From Opitutia bacterium KCR 482 (lineage in GTDB: Bacteria > Verrucomicrobiota > Verrucomicrobiia > Opitutales > Intestinicryptomonadaceae), in assembly GCA_029269845.2 (NCBI GenBank), contig CP149973.1, positions 540,001 through 572,000 of the forward strand: a stretch of DNA of 32,000 nt, given 5' to 3'. Made by a program: the position numbers and the translations under genes. A model generated the notes under the pieces. The model was not told the DNA's origin. It did not search any database and saw nothing but the letters and a program-made list of their open reading frames with translations. Numbering within the stretch: the first letter of the stretch is position 1; every line of letters starts with the position of its first letter. This document shows, piece after piece, positions 17,136-30,457 of the stretch.

Positions 17136-17365
17136 GTACCAAATAAACTCCACCGTTTTGCGGCTTGAAAATCTCGCAACCGCGCTCTGTCGGACGCATT
17201 CGGAGGGGCATATTACCGCCGGACGGAAACGCCGGCGGAATCGGGGACAGTCCGCTCCCGCAGACACCGACCGCCGTGCGGCATTCCACTCCGGAACGCG
17301 CAGCGCGGCGCAAGAGTCGGTCGGCGGACAAACAAACAAACGGAAATAACGAAAGACAAAATACC

Positions 17366-20143
17366 ATGGCAAAAAAAGTTGCTAAAAAAGCCCCCACCAA
17401 AAAAGCTTCCGTAAAATCGGCAAGTTCCAAAAACAAAAAATATACATACCTGTTCGGAAGCAAAACCGACGGCGACGCAAAAATGCGCAACCTCCTCGGC
17501 GGCAAGGGCGCAAACCTCGCCGAAATGGCGAGAATAGGACTGCCCGTCCCCCCCGGATTCACAATCACGACGGAAGTCTGCACGCACTTTTACGACAACG
17601 GCAAAAAATATCCCGCGTCGCTCGAAGCGCAGGTAAAGGCGGGCGTGCAGTCGGTAGAAAGGCAGATGGGCAAAATCTTCGGCGACGAAAAAGATCCCCT
17701 GCTCTTCTCCGTCCGCTCCGGCGCGAGGGAATCCATGCCCGGCATGATGGACACAATCCTCAACCTCGGTCTCAACGACAAAACCGTTGAGGGGCTTTCC
17801 GCAAAGACAAACAACCCCCGCTTTGCGTGGGACTGCTACCGCAGGTTCGTCCAAATGTACGGCGATGTCGTGATGGGCGTTCAGGCGCGGAACGAAGCCG
17901 AAACCGAGCCTTTCCACAAAGTGATGGAAACGCTGAAAGCGGAAGTCGGCGCAAAGCTCGACACAGACCTCGACGTCGCCGCGCTCAAAGAGCTTGTCAA
18001 ACGCTACAAAGCCCTGATTAGGGAACGCGCGGGCAAGAGCTTCCCGCAGGACGTATACGACCAGCTTTGGGGCGCAATCGGCGCGGTGTTCGGCTCGTGG
18101 ATGAACGAACGCGCAATCATCTACCGCCAAAAATACAACATTCCCGCAAGCTGGGGCACGGCGGTAAACGTGCAGACAATGGTCTTCGGCAACAAGGGCG
18201 AAACGAGCGCGACGGGCGTCGCCTTCACGCGCGACCCCGCAAACGGCGAAAACGAATTCTACGGCGAATACCTCATCAACGCGCAGGGCGAGGACGTCGT
18301 GGCGGGCGTACGCACCCCGCACAAAATTTCCGAACTCTCGAAGGAAATGCCCAAGGCATTCAAGGAGCTGCTGGCTATCCGCAAGAAGCTCGAATCGCAC
18401 TTCAAGGACATGCAGGACTTCGAATTTACAATCGAGGAAAACAAACTCTACATGCTCCAAACCCGCAACGGCAAACGCACGGGGCTTGCGGCGGTGAGAA
18501 TCGCGGTGGAAATGAACAAGGAACGCTTCATGGACGAAAAAACCGCCCTGATGAAAATCCCCGCAGACTCGATTTCAAGCCTGCTCGTTCCCGTGTTCGA
18601 CCCCGCGTCGGTCAAAAAGGCGAAAGTCGTCGCAAAGGGGCTGCCCGCAGGGCCTGGGGCGGCGTCGGGCGAAGTCGTGTTCACGGCGGCGCAGGCGGAG
18701 CTCGTGGCGGCGCGCGGACGCAAATCGGTTCTCTGCCGCGAGGAAACGTCTCCCGAAGACCTGCGCGGAATGATTGCCGCCGAGGGCATTCTTACATCGC
18801 GCGGCGGCGTAAGCTCGCACGCGGCGCTCGTCGCCCGCCAGATGGGCAAAGTCTGCATTTGCGGCGCAAGCGACGTCTCGATGGACTACGAAAAACGCCT
18901 CATGTCGATAGGCGACATCGTAATCAAGGAGGGCGACTACATCTCGATTGACGGCACCACGGGCGAAATTTTCCTCGGCGAAATCGACAACGCCCCGAGC
19001 GAAGTAATCCGCGTGCTTTCGGGCAAAATGAAGCCCGCCAAGAGCTACACTTACAGGCTGTTCGACACCGTCATGAAGTGGGCGGACAAATACCGCAAAC
19101 TCGGCGTCCGCACAAACGCCGACACCCCCGAACAGGCGAAGCGCGCGGTGCAACTCGGCGCGGAGGGAATCGGGCTTTGCCGCACAGAGCACATGTTCTT
19201 CGAGGGCGACAGAATCGACGCCGTGCGCGAAATGATTCTCGCGACCGACAAAACCGAACGAGAAAAGGCGCTCAAAAAACTCCTGCCCTACCAGCGCAAA
19301 GACTTCGAGGGCATATTCAAGGCGATGGACGGGCTGCCCGTTACCGTCAGACTCCTCGACCCCCCTCTGCACGAATTCCTGCCGCACGAAAGCGCGGCTC
19401 GCAACGCGCTCGCGGAAAAAATGAACCTTCCGCCCGAAATCCTCGTCGAACGCTGCAAGGCTCTTGAAGAGCAGAACCCGATGCTCGGACACAGAGGCTG
19501 CCGACTCGGCAACTGCTTCCCCGAAATCACGGAAATGCAGGCTCGCGCGATTTTCGAAGCGGCGGCTTCGCTGCTGAAAAAAGGCAAAAAAGTTAAAGTA
19601 GAAATCATGGTTCCGCTCGTCGGATTCGTGAAAGAGCTGAAATTCCAGGCGGAGACAATCGCAAAGACATGCGCGGCTGTCGAAAAGGAAAAGAAAGTCA
19701 AAATAGACTACATGCTCGGCACAATGATTGAAGTTCCGCGCGGGGCGTTGACTGCGGACGAAATCGCGGAAGTGGCGCAATTCTTCTCGTTCGGCACAAA
19801 CGACCTCACCCAAACGGGGCTTGGCATGAGCCGCGACGACGCAGGCAGCTTCCTCGGACGCTATAAGGAACTGGACATTCTGCCGAAAAACCCGTTCGCG
19901 TCAATCGACGTCGACGGCGTGGGACAGCTTGTGAGAATCGGCGCGGAAAAGGGACGCTCTGCGCGCAAAGACCTGAAACTTGGCGTGTGCGGCGAACACG
20001 GAGGCGACCCCGATTCAATCAACTTCTTCAACGACGTCGGCTTGAACTACGTCAGTTGCTCGCCGCCGCGAGTGCCCGTAGCCCGACTCGCCGCGGCGCA
20101 GGCGGCTCTCAAAACCGCCGCCGCCAAGAAGGCGAAAAAATAA
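17366..20143 (+). CDS. ppdK: Pyruvate, phosphate dikinase
   Basis: 925 aa from ATG 17366. Motifs [12 protein letters not shown], the catalytic-His region [18 protein letters not shown], and C-terminal [10 protein letters not shown]. The track start at 17165 is a TTG extension through the leader. Confidence 0.95.
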
Positions 20144-20332: not shown

Positions 20333-20407
<75 letters not shown>

Positions 20408-20697: not shown

Positions 20698-20946
20698 TTA
20701 TTCGGAAACAACGACCGACACCTTGCGGTGCGCACCGTCCCACTTTACGATACCGTCTTTGAGCGCGAACAGCGTGTAGTCTTTGCCTATGCCGACGTTT
20801 TCGCCGGGGTGAACCTTAGTGCCGCACTGGCGCATGATGATGTTGCCCGCCAAAACAAATTCGTCGCCGAATTTCTTTACGCCGAGACGCTGCGCGTGCG
20901 AATCGCGTCCGTTTTTCGCGCTACCCTGACCTTTTTTATGTGCCAT
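20698..20946 (-). CDS. rpmA: 50S ribosomal protein L27
   Basis: 82 aa, [24 protein letters not shown]..., a canonical L27 N-terminus. Confidence 0.97.
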
Positions 20947-20962: not shown

Positions 20963-21277
20963 TTATGCTTTTACGGATTCGACCTTAACCACCGAAAGCT
21001 CCTGACGGTGACCCTGCTTGCGCTGGTAACCCTTTCTGCGCTTTTTCTTGATGATTACAACCTTTTTGCCGCGCTTGTTTTCGAGGATTTTTACGGAAAC
21101 GCTCGCGCCGTCGATGTAAGGCGAACCGAACTTGACGCCATCGCCTTCGCCGGCCATGAGAACTTCCTTGATTTCTACTGTGTCGCCCGCTTTGGAATTA
21201 ACGAAACGGTTGACAAAAAGTATGTCTCCTTCGCTGACGGTGACCTGTTTTCCCTGTATTTTGATTGTCGCTTTCAT
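20963..21277 (-). CDS. rplU: 50S ribosomal protein L21
   Basis: 104 aa with a typical L21 sequence (KQVTVSEGD...[16 protein letters not shown]), immediately upstream of rpmA. Confidence 0.95.
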
Positions 21278-22045: not shown

Positions 22046-22519
22046 CTACTCGAAGGCGGCAATTCCAGTGGGCGCATTCGATTTTATGCGGATTACGCTG
22101 AATACCGTGCCGTTTTCCGTTACGATTTTTTCGGACACAACCGAGCCGTCCTCCGACGGCAATACCGATTTTGCGATTTTTTCGTCGTGCGCCGGCATGG
22201 TGTCGACCGCAAGCTTCATCAGAGCTGCGCAGACAATCATCAGCGCCGCAACCGCCGACCATTCCAGCGCCGCGCGGACGCGGGAAGTTTTCTTTGCGGC
22301 GAAAAACGGCGAGCTTACGCCGTCGAGCGGAGCAAAAACCGCCTTTTTGCCGTAGATGGAGCACATTGCGGCATGGAGACGGCAGGACTTGTGGAAAATG
22401 TCCGCCATGCGGGGGTCGTCGCGGACGCATTTTGCGAGCAGTTCGATTTCGGCGGGAGTCGCCTCACCGTCGAGATACGACGAAACGAGTTCGTCGAATC
22501 TACCCCGCGAAATTTTCAT
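22046..22519 (-). CDS. Anti-sigma factor (single-pass membrane)
   Basis: 157 aa. Its start overlaps the sigma gene stop by 1 nt (TAATG). The N-terminus LVSSYLDGEATPAEIELLAKCVRDDPRMADIF is typical of ECF anti-sigma N-terminal domains. TM helix ALEWSAVAALMIVCAALMKLAV. Confidence 0.75.
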   Translation of the reverse strand: MKISRGRFDELVSSYLDGEATPAEIELLAKCVRDDPRMADIFHKSCRLHAAMCSIYGKKAVFAPLDGVSSPFFAAKKTSRVRAALEWSAVAALMIVCAALMKLAVDTMPAHDEKIAKSVLPSEDGSVVSEKIVTENGTVFSVIRIKSNAPTGIAAFE

Positions 22520-23115
22520 TACTTTAATTTTTCAAGTTCCTCGCGCAGATACTCGCGGGCTCTCGACAGGCGGCTCTTGACCGTGCCGACGCTCAGCCCC
22601 AGTCTGGACGCGATTTCCTCGTAGCTCAAATCCTCGGCATTGCGCAGTTTGAGAACCTCTCCGTATTTTTGAGGAAGGGCGTCAATCGCCTTGGGAAGAA
22701 GCTCGGAAAACTCGGTGAAAGCGGCGGTTTCGGCGGGGTTCTGTTCTTCGCCCTCGATGAGGTCGCAAACAGTCATGTCGCCGTCGTCGCCGACGGGAGT
22801 GTCGAGCGAAATCGACTCGCCGCGTTTGCGCCGCCACCAGTACCAGTGCTTGTTGTGGGCGAGATTTGTGGCGATATGGTAGAGCCAAGTGGAAATGGAG
22901 CAGTCTCCCCTGAAATTGCCTATGCTTTTGCGGGCGCGGATAAATGTGTCCTGCGCGACCTCCTCGGCGTCCTGCCGATTGTCGAGCAGACTGTTGGCGC
23001 GGTTGTAGATTTTATCCCAGTGGGAGTTGACCAACTCTCCGAACGCAACGTCGTCTCCGCCCTTCAAACGTTCGAGGAGGTTGTCGGAACAAGTAGATTC
23101 GGTTGTTTTTGCCAT
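22519..23115 (-). CDS. ECF-type RNA polymerase sigma-70 family factor
   Basis: 198 aa. Region 2 (DAEEVAQDTFIRARKSIGNFRG...STWLYHIATN) and region 4 HTH (LSYEEIASRLGLSVGTVKSRLSRAR). Confidence 0.9.
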   Translation of the reverse strand: MAKTTESTCSDNLLERLKGGDDVAFGELVNSHWDKIYNRANSLLDNRQDAEEVAQDTFIRARKSIGNFRGDCSISTWLYHIATNLAHNKHWYWWRRKRGESISLDTPVGDDGDMTVCDLIEGEEQNPAETAAFTEFSELLPKAIDALPQKYGEVLKLRNAEDLSYEEIASRLGLSVGTVKSRLSRAREYLREELEKLK

Positions 23116-23140
23116 AGATGCTGAATAGTCTTTGTATATT

Positions 23141-23168
23141 ATAGACGCGCAGACGGCGGAAACGTTTC
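23141..23168 (-). promoter_or_regulatory. ECF-type autoregulatory promoter candidate
   Basis: On the minus strand: TGAAAC (23168-23163), 16 nt, CGTCTA (23146-23141), about 25 nt upstream of the sigma ATG. This matches the general ECF pattern GAAC-N16/17-CGTC. The -35 lies within the palindrome GAAACGTTTC. Confidence 0.4.
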
Positions 23169-23314
23169 AAAAAAACTTGAATTTTCGCAACGAGCCGCGC
23201 GCGAAACGCGCCGTTATCGGGATAATCGTACTTTCCCGCGCGGACTCAACTTTTTTTTTCGAAAAAAAACTCCGACCGACCGACAAGCCGAAACGCGCCG
23301 AAAAACGCCAAAAA

Positions 23315-25090
23315 ATGGTTGCCAAAAGGGAGACATCAATTAAGAATACGATAAAAGAATATATGTTTGGATTTGGACTACACAAAAAAAACCGCCGCAA
23401 ACTCGCGCTGATAGACTGCGCGGACGCGTCGGTAAGCGAAACATCGCACTTCCCCGCCACGCTCGGAGGCTCCAACGACCCGCTGAAAACGGGCTTTCCC
23501 TTCCCGTTTCTCGAAGTCTCCGAAACGAAGGGCGGAAAACTTCTGCTCACGCCGACCGACCCCACCGCCGACGTGAAAATCAACGGCACCAAAATCTCCG
23601 AACCCGTGGAGCTTTCGGGAGCTGCTACAATGCAGCTCGGCGAGCGCCTCTTCTACCTTTCCGACGACCCCAAAACCATCGAAAAGGCGCGGAACATGGA
23701 CGTCTCGAAATGGCTTGTCTTCTACGCCGAAACGGGGCGGATAGAAGACGAAGTGCCGTTCGCGCGGCTGAAACAGTCGGTGCTCGGACGCGGGCTTAGC
23801 GGCGCGGGAATAGCAATCTGCCCGAAGGGCTTTGAGCTTGGCTTCATGTTCTCTTCGGTGTTCGGCGACGGCTCGGATTCCGACGCGACAGTGCCGATTC
23901 TCTCGGAAAATTCGGAGGCAATAACGTGCCCGCTCTGCTGGCTGAAATTCGACGTCGGCGACGCCATGAGCATAGCGGTTCACGAGAGCCTGCGCGGAGA
24001 TCCCGTGCTTGGGCAGGACGAAATGCTGCGCTTTCTGCCGACATCTTTCACGGAGGACGGCGTGGCAATCGACCCCGCGGGAATGCCCGCCCCCGACGTC
24101 GCATGCCCGCACTGCCGCAGAAAGCTTCCGCCGAACTACCTTGAACTCGACCGCCGCATATTCTCGATAGTGGGCGCGCCGAGCGCGGGGAAGTCGTACT
24201 ACCTGAGCGCGCTAATAAGCATGCTGCAAGGCTCGCTCTACAAAAATTTCGGCATTGTGCTCAAAGACCTCGACCCGTCGGGAAACATGCTGCTTACGCA
24301 AATGAAAAACAGCCTGTTTTCGGCAAAACGCCCCGAAGACGCGATTCTCGCAAAAACCGCGCTCGAAGGGAAGATGTACGAACGCTACCCGCGCTTCGGA
24401 AAAATAGTCGCGCTGCCCAAACCCATGACGTACTCGCTCTCGCGCGACGGCGCGGAGGGAACTTCGATAATTTTCTACGACAACGCGGGCGAACACTTCG
24501 AACCGGGGCTTGACATAGAGGAGTCGCCTGGGGCAATGCACGTGGCAAGCTCGTCGGGAATATTCTTCCTTTTCGACCCCGCCGCAAACCGCAACTTCAA
24601 GGCGGCTCTCGGCGACTATCCCGACCCGCAGCTTTCAATCGACGGACGGCTCGACCAGCAGGACACCATTTTGTCGGAAATGGAAATCCGCATAAAAAGA
24701 ATACTCGCGATTGAGCCTCTGAAAAAAATAGACACGCCGCTTGCGATTCTCATCGGCAAGTGCGACATGTGGAAACACCTGCTGAAAACGCCGCTCGCGG
24801 AGCCGATTTCCGACGGGAGGCTCGACCTCGCCGCGGTTGACTCCAACAGCGGAATTTTGCGCGACTTCCTCGCGGAAATAGACCCCACGATTCCAGCAAG
24901 CGCGGAGTCGATTTCAAGCAACATAAGGTATTTCGCCGTAAGCGCGCTGGGGCACTCGCCGCAAATGCTTCTCGACGGCGAATGCGCGGGGAAAATCGCG
25001 CCGATTCCCTCGAAAATCAAGCCGATAGACGCGGAAATTCCCGCAATCTGGCTGCTGTCGCAATCGACAAAACTCATTCCGACAAAATAG
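23315..25090 (+). CDS. FHA-like / split Zn-ribbon / P-loop GTPase fusion protein (uncharacterised)
   Basis: 591 aa from ATG 23315 (alternative ATG 23363; the track start 23132 is a TTG extension). G1 GAPSAGKS (24173-24196), G3 DNAGE (24479-24493), G4 GKCD (24755-24766), G5 SAL. Cysteine pairs CPLC...CPHC lie at 23927-24115. An FHA-like segment lies at about 23402-23665. Confidence 0.8.
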   Translation: MVAKRETSIKNTIKEYMFGFGLHKKNRRKLALIDCADASVSETSHFPATLGGSNDPLKTGFPFPFLEVSETKGGKLLLTPTDPTADVKINGTKISEPVELSGAATMQLGERLFYLSDDPKTIEKARNMDVSKWLVFYAETGRIEDEVPFARLKQSVLGRGLSGAGIAICPKGFELGFMFSSVFGDGSDSDATVPILSENSEAITCPLCWLKFDVGDAMSIAVHESLRGDPVLGQDEMLRFLPTSFTEDGVAIDPAGMPAPDVACPHCRRKLPPNYLELDRRIFSIVGAPSAGKSYYLSALISMLQGSLYKNFGIVLKDLDPSGNMLLTQMKNSLFSAKRPEDAILAKTALEGKMYERYPRFGKIVALPKPMTYSLSRDGAEGTSIIFYDNAGEHFEPGLDIEESPGAMHVASSSGIFFLFDPAANRNFKAALGDYPDPQLSIDGRLDQQDTILSEMEIRIKRILAIEPLKKIDTPLAILIGKCDMWKHLLKTPLAEPISDGRLDLAAVDSNSGILRDFLAEIDPTIPASAESISSNIRYFAVSALGHSPQMLLDGECAGKIAPIPSKIKPIDAEIPAIWLLSQSTKLIPTK

Positions 25091-25094
25091 CGAA

Positions 25095-26408
25095 ATGGCA
25101 TACCAACTCATTTACACAAGCGCGCCGGCGTCGCTCACACTGGGCAGAACGGGTTTTTCGACCGTCGCCCGCACGCGCGACATGCCCGAAAAACTCGCCG
25201 CCGCCGTCGAAAGGTGCGGAGTCTACGAAATAGGCTCCGGCGAAGTGTTCTCGCACAAAACCCTGCAATACGGCGGACAGACATGGCATATCCTCACGCG
25301 CATGCGCGACGCGGGGACGGACTACACAAACAGAAACAACTACGTCGCCCACCACATCGCGATTCCGCAAAGCGACATCGGCGGACTCGCAAATCCCGCC
25401 GAAATTCTGGCGCAGTGGAGCGGCTGGGTGTCGAAATGGAGCGGCGACCCGCGCTACGTCGGCGAAGTTTTCGGGCTTGAAAACATCAAGGCTAAAAACT
25501 CCCTGCCCGCAAAAAACTGGGAAAAATATTTCGGCAACCCCGCAAAGGCCGCGCTGCTTTCGAACTGCCCCGCGCAGATTTCGGCGTCGCCCGACGACGC
25601 GCGGACGCTGCTCGACCTCTTCTCCGAAAGCCTGCTGCTCAACGCCAACCCCGCCGACGCGTGGGACATCACGTTCACGACGTCGATGGCGTCGGGGGAA
25701 AACCCGAACGCGTTTCTCTGGAAGACCGACACGTCGGGAAACGCCGCGGCGATAAACCTTTCCGCAAAAACCGCGCCCGCCGCGCCCGACAATCGCGCCG
25801 CGAAATACGCGCTCACGGGCGAAAAAAACAACCGCGAACGCTACAATCTGAAAGTCGGCGCGCCGAAGGCGGTAGTCCGCTACGATGTGGTGGAAACGCA
25901 AAAGGGCGGCTCGAAAAACGCGCCAATCTACGGAATTTCGGCGGCGATAACGATTGGGGCAATCGCGGCGGCGGCGTTTGCGCTCATGCCCGAACGCGAA
26001 AAAACGCGCAGTTCCGACACAGAACAGCGCGAACTTCCCGTGCTTGCAAGCGCAGCCGAAACGCCGACAGGCGCGGAGGAAGAACCCGCAAAAAAGTCGC
26101 TCGCCCAGACGGCGGGGGAAGTGAGGGAAAAAATCGCCTCCGACGACTTTGCGGGGGCTTTGGAAATCTGGAAAAATTCGGGCTACTCCGAAAAAAACCC
26201 GTCGCTTGAACGCGACATTTTGGAGGACATCGGAACGCGGGCGGACTCCCTCATGCGCCGCGCCGAAAACCTGCTGACCGTCGGAACTCCGCAGACCCGC
26301 GCCGACGCCGCAAAACTGCTCGCCGCCGCGCGGCTTGCCCTCGACATTCCCGACATTCCCAAGCGCGAAACGCGCGAAACAAAATGGAAGGCTTTGAAAC
26401 AAAAATGA
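25095..26408 (+). CDS. Single-pass membrane protein with a GAP1-N2-like (GTPase-associated protein 1) N-terminal domain
   Basis: 437 aa starting 4 nt after the GTPase stop. N-terminus MAYQLIYTSAPASLTLGRTGFSTVARTRDMP...GTDYTNRNNYVAHHIAIP. TM helix at aa 277-299 (25923-25991), then a helical C-terminal tail. Confidence 0.75.
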   Translation: MAYQLIYTSAPASLTLGRTGFSTVARTRDMPEKLAAAVERCGVYEIGSGEVFSHKTLQYGGQTWHILTRMRDAGTDYTNRNNYVAHHIAIPQSDIGGLANPAEILAQWSGWVSKWSGDPRYVGEVFGLENIKAKNSLPAKNWEKYFGNPAKAALLSNCPAQISASPDDARTLLDLFSESLLLNANPADAWDITFTTSMASGENPNAFLWKTDTSGNAAAINLSAKTAPAAPDNRAAKYALTGEKNNRERYNLKVGAPKAVVRYDVVETQKGGSKNAPIYGISAAITIGAIAAAAFALMPEREKTRSSDTEQRELPVLASAAETPTGAEEEPAKKSLAQTAGEVREKIASDDFAGALEIWKNSGYSEKNPSLERDILEDIGTRADSLMRRAENLLTVGTPQTRADAAKLLAAARLALDIPDIPKRETRETKWKALKQK

Positions 26409-29167
26409 CGCCGCAACTTCTGACAGTAAAAATTCAGGCAATTCTCGGCGGGCGGTCGAACGCCTCCGACATGCAAAAACGCTCCGTCGCAACCGAATAC
26501 TACAAGCTGTGCGCCCAGACGGAATCGCAGCTGGAACACTGCGTCGCGCTAATCAAGGCGGGGCGCGACTACACCGCATTGCAGGTCGCCGAATCGTCCG
26601 ACCTGCTCGACACGCTCAACGCCCTGCTCTTCCCCGAAATCGAACAGTGGCGGGCGTTCTGCGACGGCGCAAACCTGCCCGTTCCGCCGCCGTTCGACGA
26701 CGCGCAAATAGAGCTTGTGAACTCGCTGTACTCGCGCGGAATTTCGCAAAACCACCCTCTCTACCGCGACTTCCGCAGGGCGATGCGCATGCGCAGATAC
26801 GAGGACGCGCTCGCGGTAATCAAAACGATTTCAAAAATCAACGCCTACGATGCCGAGGCGCGGCGCGAGTGCGAAAAGCTGTCCAGACGCGTCGCGTCGG
26901 CAAAGCTCGCGCAGCTCGAACGCGCGGTCGCGTCGGACGACTTCGCCGAAGCGTCTAAAATACGCGACGCCCTCGCGCCCGAAGCGGCCACGCTCTCCGA
27001 CAACAAAATCTGGCGCAACGCCGAACTCTACCTGCGCTCCCACACGGAGGAAGCCGAGCGCAAACGCTGCGCCGAAATCGTCGCCGAGCTTGAAAAACTC
27101 GACGTCGAGCGCGACTTCGCCGCCGCCGCCGACCTCGTGAACGAATTCAACCTCCTGCGCGGCGACGCCGACTTCGACGGAACGGAATTCGTCGAAAGAA
27201 TCTCCGCCGAAACCGCGAAAAAGCAGGACGCCGCGATTGCCGCCGCAAAGGCTGCGCGGGCGGCAAACCTCGCGCGGGCGGAGCTTGAAAAGCCCGACAA
27301 ATCGGAAAAACGCGCCGAAAGACTCGCGCGGCTGACAGCCCTAAAAGCGGAGGCGGCGGACGCGCTCGACGCGGAGGCGGCTAAGAGGCTCTCCTCCGAA
27401 ATCTCGAAGCTCCGCGCGGCGGCAGCGCTCGCAAAACTCGCCCTCGCGGCGGCTGTTTGCGCGGGAATAGCGGCAGTCGGCGCGGGCGCGTATTTCGCGT
27501 GGAGCTACGAAACCGCGCGGCAAAACGAAATCGCCGCCGAAAACGAAATCGCGGAAATGGAGAATCTGCGCGAGCCGTCGCACCTGCCGAAAAAAATCGC
27601 GGAGTTCGAAAGAAAATACCCGTCGAAAAAATACGCCGAAAGGCTCGCGGCATTGGCGGACTCCGCGAAAATCGCGGCAAACAGACTCGCGCGGGTAAAG
27701 GAGGCCGTGCGATCGCTCGAAAAGTTCGACCCAAAAACCGCAAAACCCGCCGACTTCGAAAAGGCGAAAAATCTGGTCGAGGAACTGCGCCTCGAAGCGG
27801 CGTCGCTCTCGCCCGTCGAGCAGTCGGTATACCGCGGAATAATCGACTCCTCGGGCAAAAGGATTTCAGCCGCAGCCGAGGAACGCAGGGCGAAAAACGC
27901 CGCCGACCTCAGGAAATACCTTGCCCAATACGAAGCCGTCGCCGAAGAGTACGAAAACTTCGCGCGGGCAAAGGCGGACATCGACCGCGACGCCGACGCC
28001 GTTCTGGAAAAGCTCCGCCCGCTCGTGGGCGAAGTGTCGGCAACGTTCAGACCGCACAGACTCGATTCCGAAAAATTCGACGAAATTTCGGTGAGGGTAG
28101 CCGACGCGAAAAACGCCTACGCGAAGTTCGACAAGCTCCGCTCCGCCCTGCTTACGTCGCAGAGCGCGGCGGAATACGCGGCGTCGCTCGAAAGCCTTGC
28201 GGAATCGGGCGCGGCGCCCGCGGAATTTTCGCGCAAGCTCTCGAAAATCGCGGAGGTAAAGGACGCCATTCTGCGCGGGCAAACGGCGGAATTCGGAACG
28301 CCCGAAGCCGCCGCGCGGCTCGACTCGGCGGGAATCGCCGCAAAGGCGTCCCTGCCCGAAAACGAAATGCTCACAAACCTCTACAAATACTCGCGCGAGG
28401 GCAGGCTCGACGTGTACACGCTCGGGAAAATCTCGGAGAAAACCTCGAAGTGGCGCGGCGGCTCTGAGGTCGTGCAGGAGGTGCGAGAAGTGGGCGCGGG
28501 CGGGAAAATACTGACAGCCCCCTACCGCAAGCACTTCATCGACGGGCGCGCCCCGCGCGGCGTTCTGCTTGTAGGCGGCGCGAAAACGGCGGAGTCAATG
28601 CTCGCCGAAAAGGCGGCGCAAACGGCGTCAAAGCAGTCGCTGCTATCCGCGCTCTCGCTTGTGGGCAACGCGCGGACTAACCCTATTTTCCGCGCCTATC
28701 TGGAAAAGCTGATTTTCGCAAAGCTCGCGGAAAACCCCGTGGAAACGCTGCTTGAATACTCGCCGAAAGCCAGGACGCGAATGGCGGCATTGGAACGCTA
28801 CGCAAAGCCGCTCGAAGCGCATTCGTGGATTTTCGAGTCGAACTCGAAAACGCGGCTCGTGGGAAGCGAGCTCTACGGCTCGCCCGCGCCCGACTATTTC
28901 GACGACGCGCGGACGCATGTCAACGCGCTGAAAATCGCGCTCGAAAACCCGCTCGAACTCGTCGGCGTGTGCGACGAAAACGGGAAGCCCTCGATATTCA
29001 GGGAGGCGGCGGGCGCGGTGTGGTCGGTGGACGCAAAGACTGGGAAATTCGGGAAGCTCGGCAGGGGAAAGCCCGCGCCGCTTGCGCCGATTTTCCGCGA
29101 GCGCAAATCGGCGGCGGAAATCATGCGAGAAGCCTCGCAAAAAGGCGCGGGCGAAAACAACGGCTAA
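26405..29167 (+). CDS. Large (920 aa) predominantly alpha-helical single-pass membrane protein, uncharacterised
   Basis: The ATG at 26405 overlaps the upstream stop (ATGA); the track alternative is ATG 26384. Ala/Glu/Lys/Arg-rich helical sequence on both sides of a central TM (LALAAAVCAGIAAVGAGAYFAW, about 27419-27502). The last 280 aa or so look like a globular mixed alpha/beta domain. Confidence 0.75.
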   Translation: MTPQLLTVKIQAILGGRSNASDMQKRSVATEYYKLCAQTESQLEHCVALIKAGRDYTALQVAESSDLLDTLNALLFPEIEQWRAFCDGANLPVPPPFDDAQIELVNSLYSRGISQNHPLYRDFRRAMRMRRYEDALAVIKTISKINAYDAEARRECEKLSRRVASAKLAQLERAVASDDFAEASKIRDALAPEAATLSDNKIWRNAELYLRSHTEEAERKRCAEIVAELEKLDVERDFAAAADLVNEFNLLRGDADFDGTEFVERISAETAKKQDAAIAAAKAARAANLARAELEKPDKSEKRAERLARLTALKAEAADALDAEAAKRLSSEISKLRAAAALAKLALAAAVCAGIAAVGAGAYFAWSYETARQNEIAAENEIAEMENLREPSHLPKKIAEFERKYPSKKYAERLAALADSAKIAANRLARVKEAVRSLEKFDPKTAKPADFEKAKNLVEELRLEAASLSPVEQSVYRGIIDSSGKRISAAAEERRAKNAADLRKYLAQYEAVAEEYENFARAKADIDRDADAVLEKLRPLVGEVSATFRPHRLDSEKFDEISVRVADAKNAYAKFDKLRSALLTSQSAAEYAASLESLAESGAAPAEFSRKLSKIAEVKDAILRGQTAEFGTPEAAARLDSAGIAAKASLPENEMLTNLYKYSREGRLDVYTLGKISEKTSKWRGGSEVVQEVREVGAGGKILTAPYRKHFIDGRAPRGVLLVGGAKTAESMLAEKAAQTASKQSLLSALSLVGNARTNPIFRAYLEKLIFAKLAENPVETLLEYSPKARTRMAALERYAKPLEAHSWIFESNSKTRLVGSELYGSPAPDYFDDARTHVNALKIALENPLELVGVCDENGKPSIFREAAGAVWSVDAKTGKFGKLGRGKPAPLAPIFRERKSAAEIMREASQKGAGENNG

Positions 29168-29569: not shown

Positions 29570-29623
29570 TTTTCCCGCGTAAAAAGGTTGCGAAATCCGC
29601 GCCGCTGTGGTTTCGTTATATAT

Positions 29624-30457
29624 GTGGACGATAATAAGAAAATCCTGTTCGTAGTGAACAAAACGAAAACTTCGGCGGAGGAAATCGCCGAAAAGCTTTC
29701 GAAACTCGCACTCGCAAACGGAATGTCGTGCGAAATCTGCGCCGACTTCCCCGTGCCCGAAAGCGCGTTCAAAGACAAGGACATCTGCTGCGTCATCGGC
29801 GGCGACGGCACAATACTCTCGTGCGTGCCCGCAATCGCAAAGTACGACCTCCCCGTCTTCGGCATAAACCTCGGCAAGCTCGGATTTTTGGCGACGTACA
29901 CCGACGAAATTTCCGAGGCGGAATTCCTTTCGCTCGTGCGCGGGGAACGCCGCGTGCTCGAACGCGCATTGCTCGAAGTAGTCTACAACGGCAGAAGATA
30001 CCTTGCGCTCAACGACCTCGTTTTCAAGGACGTCAGGCTCGACGGAATCTCGAAGTTCGCGATTTTCGCAGACAAGGAGTTCATCGCAACCTATGCGGGC
30101 GACGGTCTGATTTTTTCGACGCCCACGGGTTCGACCGCATACAACCTTTCGGCGGGCGGCCCGATTATCCACCCCAAGGGAAGGGTTTTCGCGATGACGC
30201 CCATCTGCCCCCACACGCTCTCGAACAGAAGCCTCATCTACGACTACGGCGCGCAGATAAAAATCGAATGCGTAAGCGGCGAAAGCGCGCTAATCGCCGA
30301 CGGCAAAAAAGTGGCAACCCTCACGCAGGGCTCGTCGGTGGAAATCAGCATGCCGTCGAACACGATACGCTTCGTGCGCCTGCGCGGGCACTCGCATTTC
30401 GCGATTTTAAGAAGCAAGCTCGGCTGGGCGGAAGACCCCCGAAAGTACGAAAGATGA
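29624..30457 (+). CDS. nadK: NAD kinase
   Basis: GGDGT, NLGKLGFL and DGLIFSTPTGSTAYNLSAGGPI motifs. I prefer the in-frame GTG at 29624 (MDDNKKILFVV..., 277 aa) over the track's TTG at 29588. The start is uncertain. Confidence 0.85.
   Translation: MDDNKKILFVVNKTKTSAEEIAEKLSKLALANGMSCEICADFPVPESAFKDKDICCVIGGDGTILSCVPAIAKYDLPVFGINLGKLGFLATYTDEISEAEFLSLVRGERRVLERALLEVVYNGRRYLALNDLVFKDVRLDGISKFAIFADKEFIATYAGDGLIFSTPTGSTAYNLSAGGPIIHPKGRVFAMTPICPHTLSNRSLIYDYGAQIKIECVSGESALIADGKKVATLTQGSSVEISMPSNTIRFVRLRGHSHFAILRSKLGWAEDPRKYER

Follow-up and report, generated by a model that had tools for sequence, protein, structure and literature searches.

The closest described relatives of the gene analysed here are the GAP1-N2 DO-GTPase systems delineated by Kaur et al. 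(2020, eLife, PMC7159879), who described the GAP1-N2 family together with a transmembrane (TM)-anchored form, verrucomicrobiae included, and allowed for C-terminal TM fusions of GAP1. That study predicted an interaction between GTPase and GAP1 and a membrane-proximal role, noted ties of tubulin and of assemblies resembling a cytoskeleton to N2 systems, described a planctomycete variant in which a pair of GYF domains is fused to a TM-rich region, and proposed that the whole family consists of biological conflict systems. Sigma factors do not figure in its main text, which refers to FHA domains only for effectors of vWA systems, and its supplementary text file contains neither Opitutia taxon names nor the term 'GYF'. 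A literature search found no experimental study of any GAP1/DO-GTPase family member.

The locus described here lies in a 32,000-nucleotide stretch of DNA from Opitutia bacterium KCR 482, hereafter the window; its features are collected in Table 1. Like the described systems, it has a GAP1-N2 gene directly downstream of a TRAFAC GTPase gene, at the distance of 4 nt given by the first-pass annotation (TAG at 25088-25090, cgaa, ATG at 25095), a GTPase that carries a glutamate in Walker B and Cys motifs in its N-terminal part, a GAP1 with a C-terminal TM, TMs in other proteins of the operon, and a linked TM protein with a sub-threshold GYF match, one GYF-like domain here against the described pair. 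It departs from them in having one GTPase rather than a pair, no FNIII-repeat protein and no variable effector, no detectable GAP1-C and only a faint GAP1-M, and in its FHA-like GTPase N-terminus and its pairing with an ECF sigma/anti-sigma module. Whereas the described systems occur sporadically in multicellular bacteria, the Opitutia cluster is syntenic, apparently vertically inherited and found in unicellular hosts. On balance, we think that the gene probably encodes the membrane-anchored GAP1 of an Opitutia N2-type DO-GTPase/GAP1 system, a transmembrane GTPase switch paired with a sigma factor.

Table 1. Features of the GAP1-N2 locus, in coordinates of the window
Feature	Coordinates	Strand	Basis
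Putative single-pass anti-sigma factor, 157 aa	22046..22519	-	Position and architecture
ECF sigma factor, SigW/RpoE-like, 198 aa, divergent	22519..23115	-	Sigma70_r2, Sigma70_r4_2, Sigma70_ECF
ECF-type promoter-like site TGAAAC-N16-CGTC	23144..23169	-	28 nt upstream of sigma start codon
A-tract then TTGCCA-N17-AAGAAT, sigma-70-like promoter-like site	23309..23347	+	16 nt upstream of GTPase start
Partner GTPase, 575 aa, true start M78 of 652-aa ORF	23363..25090	+	Homolog starts
FHA-like beta-sandwich, GTPase aa about 14-100	23402..23662	+	Foldseek
Cys4 motif of GTPase, CPLC 189-192 and CPHC 248-251	23927..24115	+	Invariant in alignment
GAP1-N2 family membrane protein, 437 aa	25095..26408	+	ORF, PF20013 match, AF2 model
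GAP1-N2 domain, aa 1-119, beta-rich alpha+beta	25095..25451	+	PF20013, conservation, AF2
Conserved middle alpha/beta domain, aa 120-260	25452..25874	+	pLDDT about 90
Single TM helix, aa 277-299	25923..25991	+	Hydropathy, AF2
Predicted disordered linker, aa about 300-335, inferred periplasmic	25992..26099	+	pLDDT <50
C-terminal helical bundle, aa 336-437, inferred periplasmic	26100..26405	+	AF2, pLDDT about 90
Third operon protein, P927, about 920 aa	26405..29167	+	Conserved start ATG 26405
Single TM of P927, aa 347-369 of 927-aa ORF	27422-27490	+	Hydropathy
Small GYF_2-like protein, 131 aa, 2-3 TM helices	29174..29569	+	GYF_2, TM segments

Judged by its sequence, the gene is a genuine member of the computationally described GAP1-N2 family, as first proposed from its N-terminus (MAYQLIYTSAPASLTLGRTGFSTVARTRDMP) and a second motif-bearing segment (AGTDYTNRNNYVAHHIAIP, aa 73-91). 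The Pfam profile PF20013 matches its first domain at E=2.2e-19 over profile positions 1-130 of 139, and the 70.3 bits obtained against a gathering score of 24 place this match far beyond chance. The same profile is found in all 49 full-length homolog clusters, which agree with the protein in length and architecture, and in all 25 homologs (30-93% identical to the protein) of the alignment used to measure conservation; 3225 representative clusters of relatives give the size of the family. The motif named in the first-pass annotation is borne out by this alignment, in which D72, D76, Y77, T78, R80, N82, A85 and H87 are invariant, with conservation of 90% or more at S9, R18, G20, F21, T23, V24 and R26. 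The invariant D72, the D76-Y-T-x-R80-x-N82 stretch and H87 are located on a beta-hairpin of the GAP1-N2 domain, and the equivalents of D76, R80 and H87 are invariant also in 55 distant long relatives. The expected association with GTPases holds as well, a GTPase homolog lying within 150 nt upstream of the GAP1-N2 gene in 71 of 82 related loci. Long spurious ORFs do arise on both strands of G+C-rich windows, and one may ask whether the ORF is such an artefact or its match fortuitous; given the E value against a curated profile, the homolog clusters, the confident AF2 model (mean pLDDT 82.4) and the conserved operon context, the chance of this is negligible, and we rejected the idea. We regarded a 472-aa ORF on the opposite strand (25074-26492) as a product of the high G+C content.

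The conserved domain that follows is possibly a divergent GAP1-M. Its conservation shows in the long relatives, which align from profile position 1 to about 245. PF20014 (GAP1-M) has no Pfam match in the protein itself at E<=1, gives faint matches in 5 of the 25 homologs (E 0.08-0.16, at the equivalent of aa about 160-218) and reaches E 2e-4 in one long relative. GAP1-C is absent from the Pfam matches of the 25 homologs even at E<=10. The TM helix proposed at aa 277-299 coincides with the only hydropathy segment (aa 280-298, peak 2.03) and with an AF2 helix at aa 276-296, and a TM segment occupies the same place in 25/25 homologs. Such an anchor had been taken as a departure from described GAP1 proteins; it is instead typical, a single TM pass being found in 54 of the 55 closest long relatives. 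The 138-aa helical tail reported beyond it (aa 300-437) separates into a linker predicted to be disordered (aa 298-331 in the model) and a confident bundle of five helices (336-348, 352-361, 369-396, 399-416 and 424-436 in the AF2 model), in which A355 and W359 are invariant. This bundle is present too in 713-aa freshwater orthologs and in orphan paralogs, which have the same architecture and no adjacent GTPase.

The positive-inside rule favours an N-in/C-out orientation with a modest bias, the 25 homologs carrying on average 2.48 K+R on the N side of the TM and 1.36 on the C side; in the 437-aa protein itself the count runs the other way, with 2 before and 4 after. In longer relatives the TM is followed by Ig, LamG or FGE-sulfatase domains, consistent with a C-terminus outside the cytoplasm. 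Conservation falls from the N2 domain to the middle domain, the tail and the linker (mean pairwise identity 0.59, 0.43, 0.34 and 0.15), a gradient consistent with a cytoplasmic interface that stays constant and an outer part that evolves faster.

Based on its invariant G1, Walker B and G4 motifs (GAPSxGKS, 271-278; FYDNAGE, 371-377; GKxD, 465-468) and on its modelled fold, the protein encoded upstream is a TRAFAC GTPase, conserved at 68% mean column identity. The 652-aa ORF called from a TTG at 23132 is over-extended, since homologs begin at M78. PDB sequence searches with the single sequence and with a profile returned nothing meaningful, and an hhalign comparison of the GTPase alignment with H-Ras covered the P-loop only (probability 6.6%); we therefore examined the fold by AF2 and Foldseek. 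At E<=1e-3 the PDB yielded 109 matches, and those to the C-terminal part include EF-Tu/EF1A, G-alpha, atlastin, Ras, Rho, Der and Rag. The DO-GTPase2 profile PF19993 scores 21.1 bits, below its gathering threshold of 27 and over profile positions 76-131 of 226 only, and 25.8-28.7 bits against five orthologs. The N-terminal beta-sandwich superposes on the FHA domain of Ki67 (1r21; TM-score 0.72, rmsd 2.6 A, 97 columns) and also matches that of KIF13A (5djo) in Foldseek. Only P31, G58, N74 and T89 are conserved in it; the canonical pThr-binding Arg and the Ser-x-x-His are absent from the N-terminal alignment, and Pfam FHA does not match this region. The Cys4 motif, presumed to be a zinc-binding element, consists of two CPxC pairs 55 residues apart in a region modelled at pLDDT 40-50, where Zn_ribbon_19 matches weakly.

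The GTPase and GAP1 genes are followed, in this order, by those of P927, a 920-aa single-pass protein, and a small GYF-like TM protein. Neighbouring genes are spaced by +4 nt (GTPase/GAP1), -4 nt (an ATGA overlap, GAP1/P927) and +6 nt (P927/GYF-like). P927, a homolog of which was found in 67/82 loci, is laid out as a conserved helical N-terminal domain, the TM (flanked by K/R in a 4 versus 1 bias), a helical region that varies and a conserved domain at the C-terminus. It has no relative in Pfam, NCBIfam or the PDB; its profile retrieved only designed helical bundles from the PDB, which we discounted as a composition effect. GYF_2 matches the small protein at E=5.8e-5 (23.2 bits, below the gathering threshold of 25.8) and 4 of 10 orthologs, likewise sub-threshold, at 17-24 bits. 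The NCBIfam search assigned no family to any of the four operon proteins.

Could the cluster be an anti-phage or other biological conflict system, with GAP1 and its partners detecting an invader at the membrane, the GTPase providing a threshold, and P927 or the GYF-TM protein being the suicide or abortive effector? The prediction made for the family as a whole and the planctomycete systems with GYF-TM proteins (PMC7159879) point in this direction, and the faster evolution of the membrane-exposed parts and the variety of ectodomains on long GAP1-N2 relatives would suit an arms race. We nevertheless regard this explanation as unlikely. No defence model in PADLOC-DB 2.0 matches the operon proteins, save a chance-level AriA P-loop hit (E=0.016), and Pfam, NCBIfam and PADLOC detect no enzymatic or toxin domain in them. 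There is no variable effector, and no FNIII was found in the small GYF-like protein or its orthologs, while P927 and 21 of its homologs show neither FNIII nor a consistent Pfam family. Unlike the content of defence islands, the six genes of the operon and sigma pair are kept as a co-diverging set in a housekeeping neighbourhood, and the host records examined for Opitutia note no multicellular habit.

The best NCBIfam models for the divergently encoded ECF sigma factor are SigW and RpoE, and a homolog of it was found in 62/82 loci. The 157-aa protein beside it, whose start codon shares 1 nt with the stop of the sigma gene and which has a TM at aa 87-105, is a putative anti-sigma factor on the strength of its position and architecture; zf-HC2 matches it weakly (E 0.054). 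TGAAAC-N16-CGTC, a candidate autoregulatory-type promoter, has its single match in the whole window upstream of the sigma gene and suggests that the pair is autoregulated. Among 58 orthologous intergenic regions, 27 have a relaxed version of the ECF motif on the sigma strand (mean 0.32 and maximum 2 in shuffles) and none has it on the GTPase strand. The operon side has instead a housekeeping-type promoter-like site, whose A-tract and TTGC[CA] recur in 22 loci at 36-47 nt from the GTPase start, with two at 60-65 nt; a generic scan of the region for terminators and promoters gave no enrichment over shuffles. Because no ECF-type promoter lies upstream of the GTPase operon in the 58 loci, we rejected direct control of the operon by the sigma factor; together with the housekeeping-type site, this makes a role of sigma as operon activator unlikely.

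By sequence comparison, the cluster beside a stress sigma factor is conserved across the class Opitutia (Verrucomicrobiota). The sigma factor, the GTPase and P927 are found all together in 60 of the 82 Opitutia loci, and the same four operon genes recur across the class with no component varying between close relatives. GAP1 identity tracks that of the GTPase (rho 0.82) and of sigma (rho 0.73). In about 20 species-level genomes the locus sits between rplU-rpmA and nadK, and the full set of six genes is kept together and diverges in step with rplU, rpmA and nadK; the constancy of these housekeeping neighbours suggests vertical inheritance. Those more distant relatives that were examined (L086 and L087) show no such link to sigma. 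Hosts are gut, rumen and freshwater Opitutia, mostly represented by metagenome-assembled genomes, with the cultured Intestinicryptomonas porci and Puniceicoccaceae Marseille-Q1082 among the carriers.

Core-like conservation and synteny of this kind would also be expected of a housekeeping machine for the envelope or for cell organisation (positioning, polarity or envelope assembly, for instance), built around a GTPase/regulator pair resembling MglA-MglB, with sigma merely co-located or sharing a divergent control region. The constitutive-type promoter-like site on the operon, the strong conservation of the GTPase, the published links of N2 to tubulin and cytoskeleton-like assemblies (PMC7159879) and the weak fold resemblance of the GAP1 N-module to regulators of the TagF, longin and FLCN-FNIP type all lend themselves to this account. 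That resemblance is below significance, however, the cluster contains no cytoskeletal, peptidoglycan or division genes, and the sigma pair has remained linked over a range of about 45-99% sigma identity; we hold simple housekeeping to be a rather improbable explanation.

We return to the transmembrane GTPase switch, and propose the following model, in which the GAP1-N2 protein most likely serves as its transmembrane coupler. The cytoplasmic module of GAP1, comprising the GAP1-N2 and middle domains (aa 1-260), would bind the GTPase, with the D76/R80/H87 hairpin possibly presented to its nucleotide pocket or its FHA-like domain. The periplasmic bundle of GAP1 and the periplasmic part of the 920-aa protein would report an envelope or extracellular cue, so that the GTPase-GAP1 complex could operate as a GTPase switch across the membrane. 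From the conserved pairing, an envelope-stress-type ECF sigma pathway may be its output or a parallel arm; an attachment maintained over such a span of sigma divergence is hard to explain without functional coupling. Several observations weigh against the model: the marginal DO-GTPase2 match, the faint GAP1-M and undetected GAP1-C, the modest topology bias, a sigma link that is one of gene neighbourhood and missing in distant relatives, the orphan paralogs lacking an adjacent GTPase, and the weak resemblance of the N-module to GTPase-regulator-like folds (best match TagF, E=8e-3). We further speculate, as a doubtful but specific extension, that the GTPase, GAP1, P927 and the GYF/TM protein form an unrecognised transmembrane input device of the ECF sigma factor. 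The ectodomains of GAP1 and P927 would read a periplasmic cue, the TagF-like N-module of GAP1 would pass it to the FHA-GTPase as a GTP/GDP state, and this state would control the neighbouring anti-sigma factor.

What does the Opitutia locus add? The family and the TM-anchored GAP1-N2 form are already known (Kaur et al. 2020, PMC7159879). What appears to be undescribed is the four-gene operon divergent from an ECF sigma/anti-sigma pair in Opitutia, its constant housekeeping neighbours and its lack of a variable effector and FNIII protein, and the FHA-like domain on the partner GTPase. Comprising a single GTPase and a single GAP1 with two membrane partners, plus the sigma/anti-sigma module, the locus represents a simple, conserved form of the system, and its cultured carriers make the function of the GAP1/DO-GTPase family testable. 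Should the sigma link prove functional, a GTPase-based mechanism would be added to the known controls of ECF sigma factors, and the assumption that the whole family serves biological conflict would be called into question; were the input-device proposal true, at least this branch of a 'conflict system' family would be a core envelope-signalling pathway.

Beyond the DO-GTPase systems, three comparisons may be informative. The GAP1 profile found nothing meaningful among PDB sequences. The five top PDB folds for the AF2 model of GAP1 are all TagF chains, from two species (9T0N, 6IZ8). These matches are below significance (E 8e-3 to 5e-2, TM-score about 0.25, up to 240 aligned columns) and cover the two-domain alpha+beta / alpha/beta body of the model. 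TagF of type VI secretion acts by binding an FHA-domain protein (PMC5995506), and the adjacent partner of GAP1 likewise carries an FHA-like domain. In contrast to GAP1, TagF is soluble and its system lacks a GTPase; the two share no sequence similarity, and no type VI secretion genes lie near the GAP1 locus. In concept, GAP1 is also comparable to the longin, roadblock and DENN regulators (MglB, FLCN-FNIP, Ragulator/SEAC), small alpha+beta platforms that bind and regulate a cognate GTPase, and the invariant R80 could be a catalytic or contact arginine. FLCN-FNIP2 and SEAC-EGOC chains are among the weak fold matches of GAP1, but none of its structural or sequence matches to these regulators is significant. 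Finally, the SigW-RsiW and RpoE-RseA modules provide the nearest parallel for the sigma side. A divergent GTPase-GAP1 operon as an input to ECF sigma modules is not described in the literature searched, and the cluster, unlike these two modules, showed no gene for a site-1 or site-2 protease; the SigW/RpoE-like sigma factor, the single-pass protein encoded next to it and the candidate promoter of autoregulatory type are features that the Opitutia locus has in common with both.

The gene at 25095-26408 (+) encodes the 437-aa protein GAP1, which opens with an ATG codon and the N-terminus MAYQLIYTSAPASLTLGRTGFSTVARTRDMP and carries the motif AGTDYTNRNNYVAHHIAIP at residues 73-91. The GAP1-N2 family, named from this motif by the first-pass annotation, is borne out by Pfam, where residues 1-119 match PF20013 (GAP1-N2; E=2.2e-19, 70.3 bits, gathering score 24); NCBIfam and PADLOC returned zero matches. 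The 4-nt spacing to the GTPase gene also stands: a TAG at 25088-25090, four bases, then the GAP1 ATG at 25095. The finding holds and its identification is correct; the protein is a member of a family already described by computational analysis. An antisense ORF of 472 aa (25074-26492, -) spans the entire gene; its predicted translation is arginine-rich, a composition typically shown by spurious ORFs where DNA is G+C-rich.

Is the membrane anchor of GAP1 unusual? A word-indexed search found 49 homolog clusters of its length (about 420-480 aa), all carrying PF20013, the named members being from Opitutales. Twenty-five of these homologs, at 30-93% identity, were aligned and used for an AlphaFold2 model (mean pLDDT 82.4), in which a helix at the hydropathy peak is followed by a helical bundle, in agreement with the single transmembrane (TM) helix and helical tail first described. 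The motif residues prove to be conserved: D72, D76, Y77, T78, R80, N82, A85 and H87 are invariant, as are E39, L67 and W142, among others, while S9, R18, G20, F21, T23, V24 and R26 are at least 90% conserved. An exhaustive profile search gave 3225 representative proteins (E<=1e-3). The entire short architecture recurs in about 30 of them; most others, among the matches listed, have 600-1300 aa and are matched only over profile positions 1 to about 245. In 55 of these long relatives the residues corresponding to D76, R80 and H87 are likewise invariant; downstream of the N-terminal module, 54 of the 55 have a single TM segment, and the C-terminal parts of some contain Ig, LamG or FGE-sulfatase domains. 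The TM helix, initially regarded as foreign to described GAP1 proteins, is thus typical for the family, and TM-fused GAP1 is listed by Kaur et al. 2020 (PMC7159879). Given the one TM segment and variable C-terminal domains of the long relatives, the general plan of this large clade, as read from sequence, puts an N-module of ~250 aa, conserved and cytoplasmic, before a single TM helix and ends in an outer part that varies; the window protein is a minimal version.

The GTPase is called as a TTG-started 652-aa ORF both in the window and in public gene calls (P0050; locus L085). Its homologs align from residue 78, placing the real start at ATG 23363 (575 aa); the 77 extra codons (23132-23362, +) cover the promoter region. 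Conservation across the family is very high (mean column identity 68%): a CPLC...CPHC pair is invariant, and so are further motifs (table), which agree with the "Walker B glutamate" noted for DO-GTPases. The match to Pfam DO-GTPase2 is marginal (21.1 bits; orthologs 25.8-28.7; gathering score 27), PDB sequence searches gave no match, and hhalign against Ras aligned the P-loop alone. With the AlphaFold2 model (pLDDT 73.7), Foldseek returned 109 matches at E<=1e-3: the C-terminal part resembles EF-Tu/EF1A/eRF3/Hbs1, G-alpha, atlastin, RNF112, Ras, Rho, Der and Rag, and the N-terminus models as an FHA-like beta-sandwich, residues about 14-100 (23402-23662, +) resembling the FHA domains of Ki67 (TM-score 0.72, rmsd 2.6 A) and KIF13A. 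Pfam detects no FHA in this region, and the alignment shows no conservation of the Arg and Ser-x-x-His that bind phosphothreonine in canonical FHA domains, so that the domain, although FHA-like, is possibly phospho-independent.

P927, the third operon protein (26405-29167, +), is called as a 927-aa ORF from 26384 but most likely starts at ATG 26405, overlapping the GAP1 stop as ATGA; its homolog consensus begins MTPQLL, which makes the start at 26384 less likely, and the overlap suggests translational coupling. The protein comprises a conserved helical N-terminal domain, one TM segment (residues 347-369 of the 927-aa ORF; four K/R before, one after), a helical middle that varies, and a C-terminal domain that is again conserved. 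Its two strongly conserved regions, residues about 30-170, with an invariant HPLYRD-x-RRA-x-R, and about 680-927, are presumably cytoplasmic and periplasmic, respectively, and neither they nor the whole protein have relatives in Pfam, NCBIfam or PDB. The N-terminal region is recognisable (27-29% identity) beside distant GAP1-N2 genes (L086, L087), and P927 may hence be a third core component of GAP1-N2 systems. Six bases after its stop begins a small protein of 131 aa, which has 2-3 TM segments and a GYF_2 match below threshold.

Features of the window and of the GAP1 and GTPase proteins (aa, residue numbers)
Feature	Position	Strand	Remark
Pyruvate phosphate dikinase-like	17165-20143	+	
tRNA-Met	20333-20407	-	
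rpmA	20698-20946	-	
rplU	20963-21277	-	
Putative anti-sigma, single-pass	22046-22519	-	divergent from GTPase operon
ECF sigma, SigW/RpoE-like	22519-23115	-	divergent from GTPase operon
TGAAAC-N16-CGTC	23144-23169	-	28 nt upstream of sigma start
nadK-like	29588-30457	+	
GTPase GAPSxGKS	aa 271-278		invariant in alignment
GTPase FYDNAGE	aa 371-377		invariant in alignment
GTPase GKxD	aa 465-468		invariant in alignment
GAP1 beta-rich alpha+beta domain	aa 1-119		AlphaFold2, pLDDT about 90
GAP1 second alpha/beta domain	aa 120-260		AlphaFold2, pLDDT about 90
GAP1 helix	aa 276-296		AlphaFold2; coincides with hydropathy peak 280-298
GAP1 disordered linker	aa 298-331		AlphaFold2
GAP1 five-helix bundle	aa 336-436		AlphaFold2, confident

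A genome scan yielded 80 loci, nearly all from Opitutales, Puniceicoccales or unclassified Opitutia of gut, rumen, freshwater and marine origin, cultured strains included; four loci from metagenome contigs, less two duplicates, bring the set to 82. The association with a GTPase gene recurs across it, at most 150 nt upstream of GAP1 in 71 loci; sigma is present in 62, P927 in 67, and all three in 60. GAP1 identity correlates with that of the GTPase (rho 0.82) and of sigma (rho 0.73), and in about 20 gut Opitutales genomes the cluster keeps its housekeeping neighbours, lying between rplU-rpmA and nadK. Freshwater Opitutae orthologs (L044, 7001-9142; other loci within L042-L084) are about 713 aa long and carry about 270 aa of additional beta-rich sequence C-terminal to the helical bundle. 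Their small GYF-like protein has about 210 aa, including a stretch rich in proline; both extra parts seem to have been lost in the gut clade. In more distant long relatives the gene order GTPase, GAP1, large protein, small protein is retained, and sigma is absent. Nine orphan paralogs of about 465-770 aa (L068, L053, L063, L066, L075, L077, L078, L040, L050) have no GTPase homolog in the available flanks, which are short for some. One of them (L068, 6995-8398) lies between aspartate kinase and asd-like genes and shares the N-module, TM and helical-tail plan, and the MAG binchicken_co54_398 holds both an orphan (L040) and a GTPase-linked copy (L051). Some MAGs that bear the labels Sphaerochaetaceae, Enterobacteriaceae and Akkermansia muciniphila also contain Opitutia-type GAP1-N2 loci (L053, L066, L075, L071), for which mis-binning or a wrong label is a likelier cause than true transfer. 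The cluster is apparently inherited vertically and Opitutia-wide.

Family identity, the GTPase partner, the tight operon, the single TM helix, the domain layout and the conserved neighbourhood are established here. We propose that the cytoplasmic N-module of GAP1 binds the GTPase, an interaction predicted by Kaur et al. from the co-evolution of both (PMC7159879), with the invariant D76/R80/H87 hairpin as candidate interface; that the periplasmic bundle and P927 would serve as sensors for a cue from the envelope or the outside; and that the GTPase state would be relayed onward, plausibly to the anti-sigma/sigma pair. We regard this scheme as a whole as reasonably probable. Of its main rivals, a generic "conflict system" role seems unlikely to us, and a housekeeping envelope role independent of sigma quite improbable. 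How might sigma take part? Of 58 orthologous intergenic regions, 27 have a relaxed form of the TGAAAC-N16-CGTC motif on the sigma strand (shuffle mean 0.32) and none has it on the GTPase strand; confined to sigma's own strand, the motif makes sigma appear autoregulated. The GTPase strand instead carries, in 22 loci, an A-tract followed by TTGC[CA] 36-47 nt before the start codon (60-65 nt in two), in the window TTGCCA-N17-AAGAAT. The operon thus appears to be driven by a housekeeping-type promoter, which argues against sigma simply switching it on.

Among known systems, the nearest is the GAP1-N2-type DO-GTPase system described by Kaur et al. 2020 (PMC7159879), who already list verrucomicrobiae, TM-fused GAP1 and GYF-TM partners; our literature search found no later work on the family. 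The window system shares with it the N2 domain, its adjacency to the GTPase gene, and a GTPase of the same class with the Walker-B glutamate. Borderline are GAP1-M, matched faintly in some homologs, the PF19993 (DO-GTPase2) score close to its threshold, the Cys pair as a putative zinc ribbon, and the GYF domain. The window system was searched for GAP1-C, the FNIII protein and the variable effector of such systems, and none of the three was found. The main text of that paper makes no mention of sigma factors, longin or DENN, and FHA appears there in vWA-system effectors only; the sigma/anti-sigma pairing (62 of the 82 related loci) is not mentioned. At the system level, what is added is an Opitutia-wide variant that combines an FHA-like GTPase with a conserved ECF sigma/anti-sigma partner.
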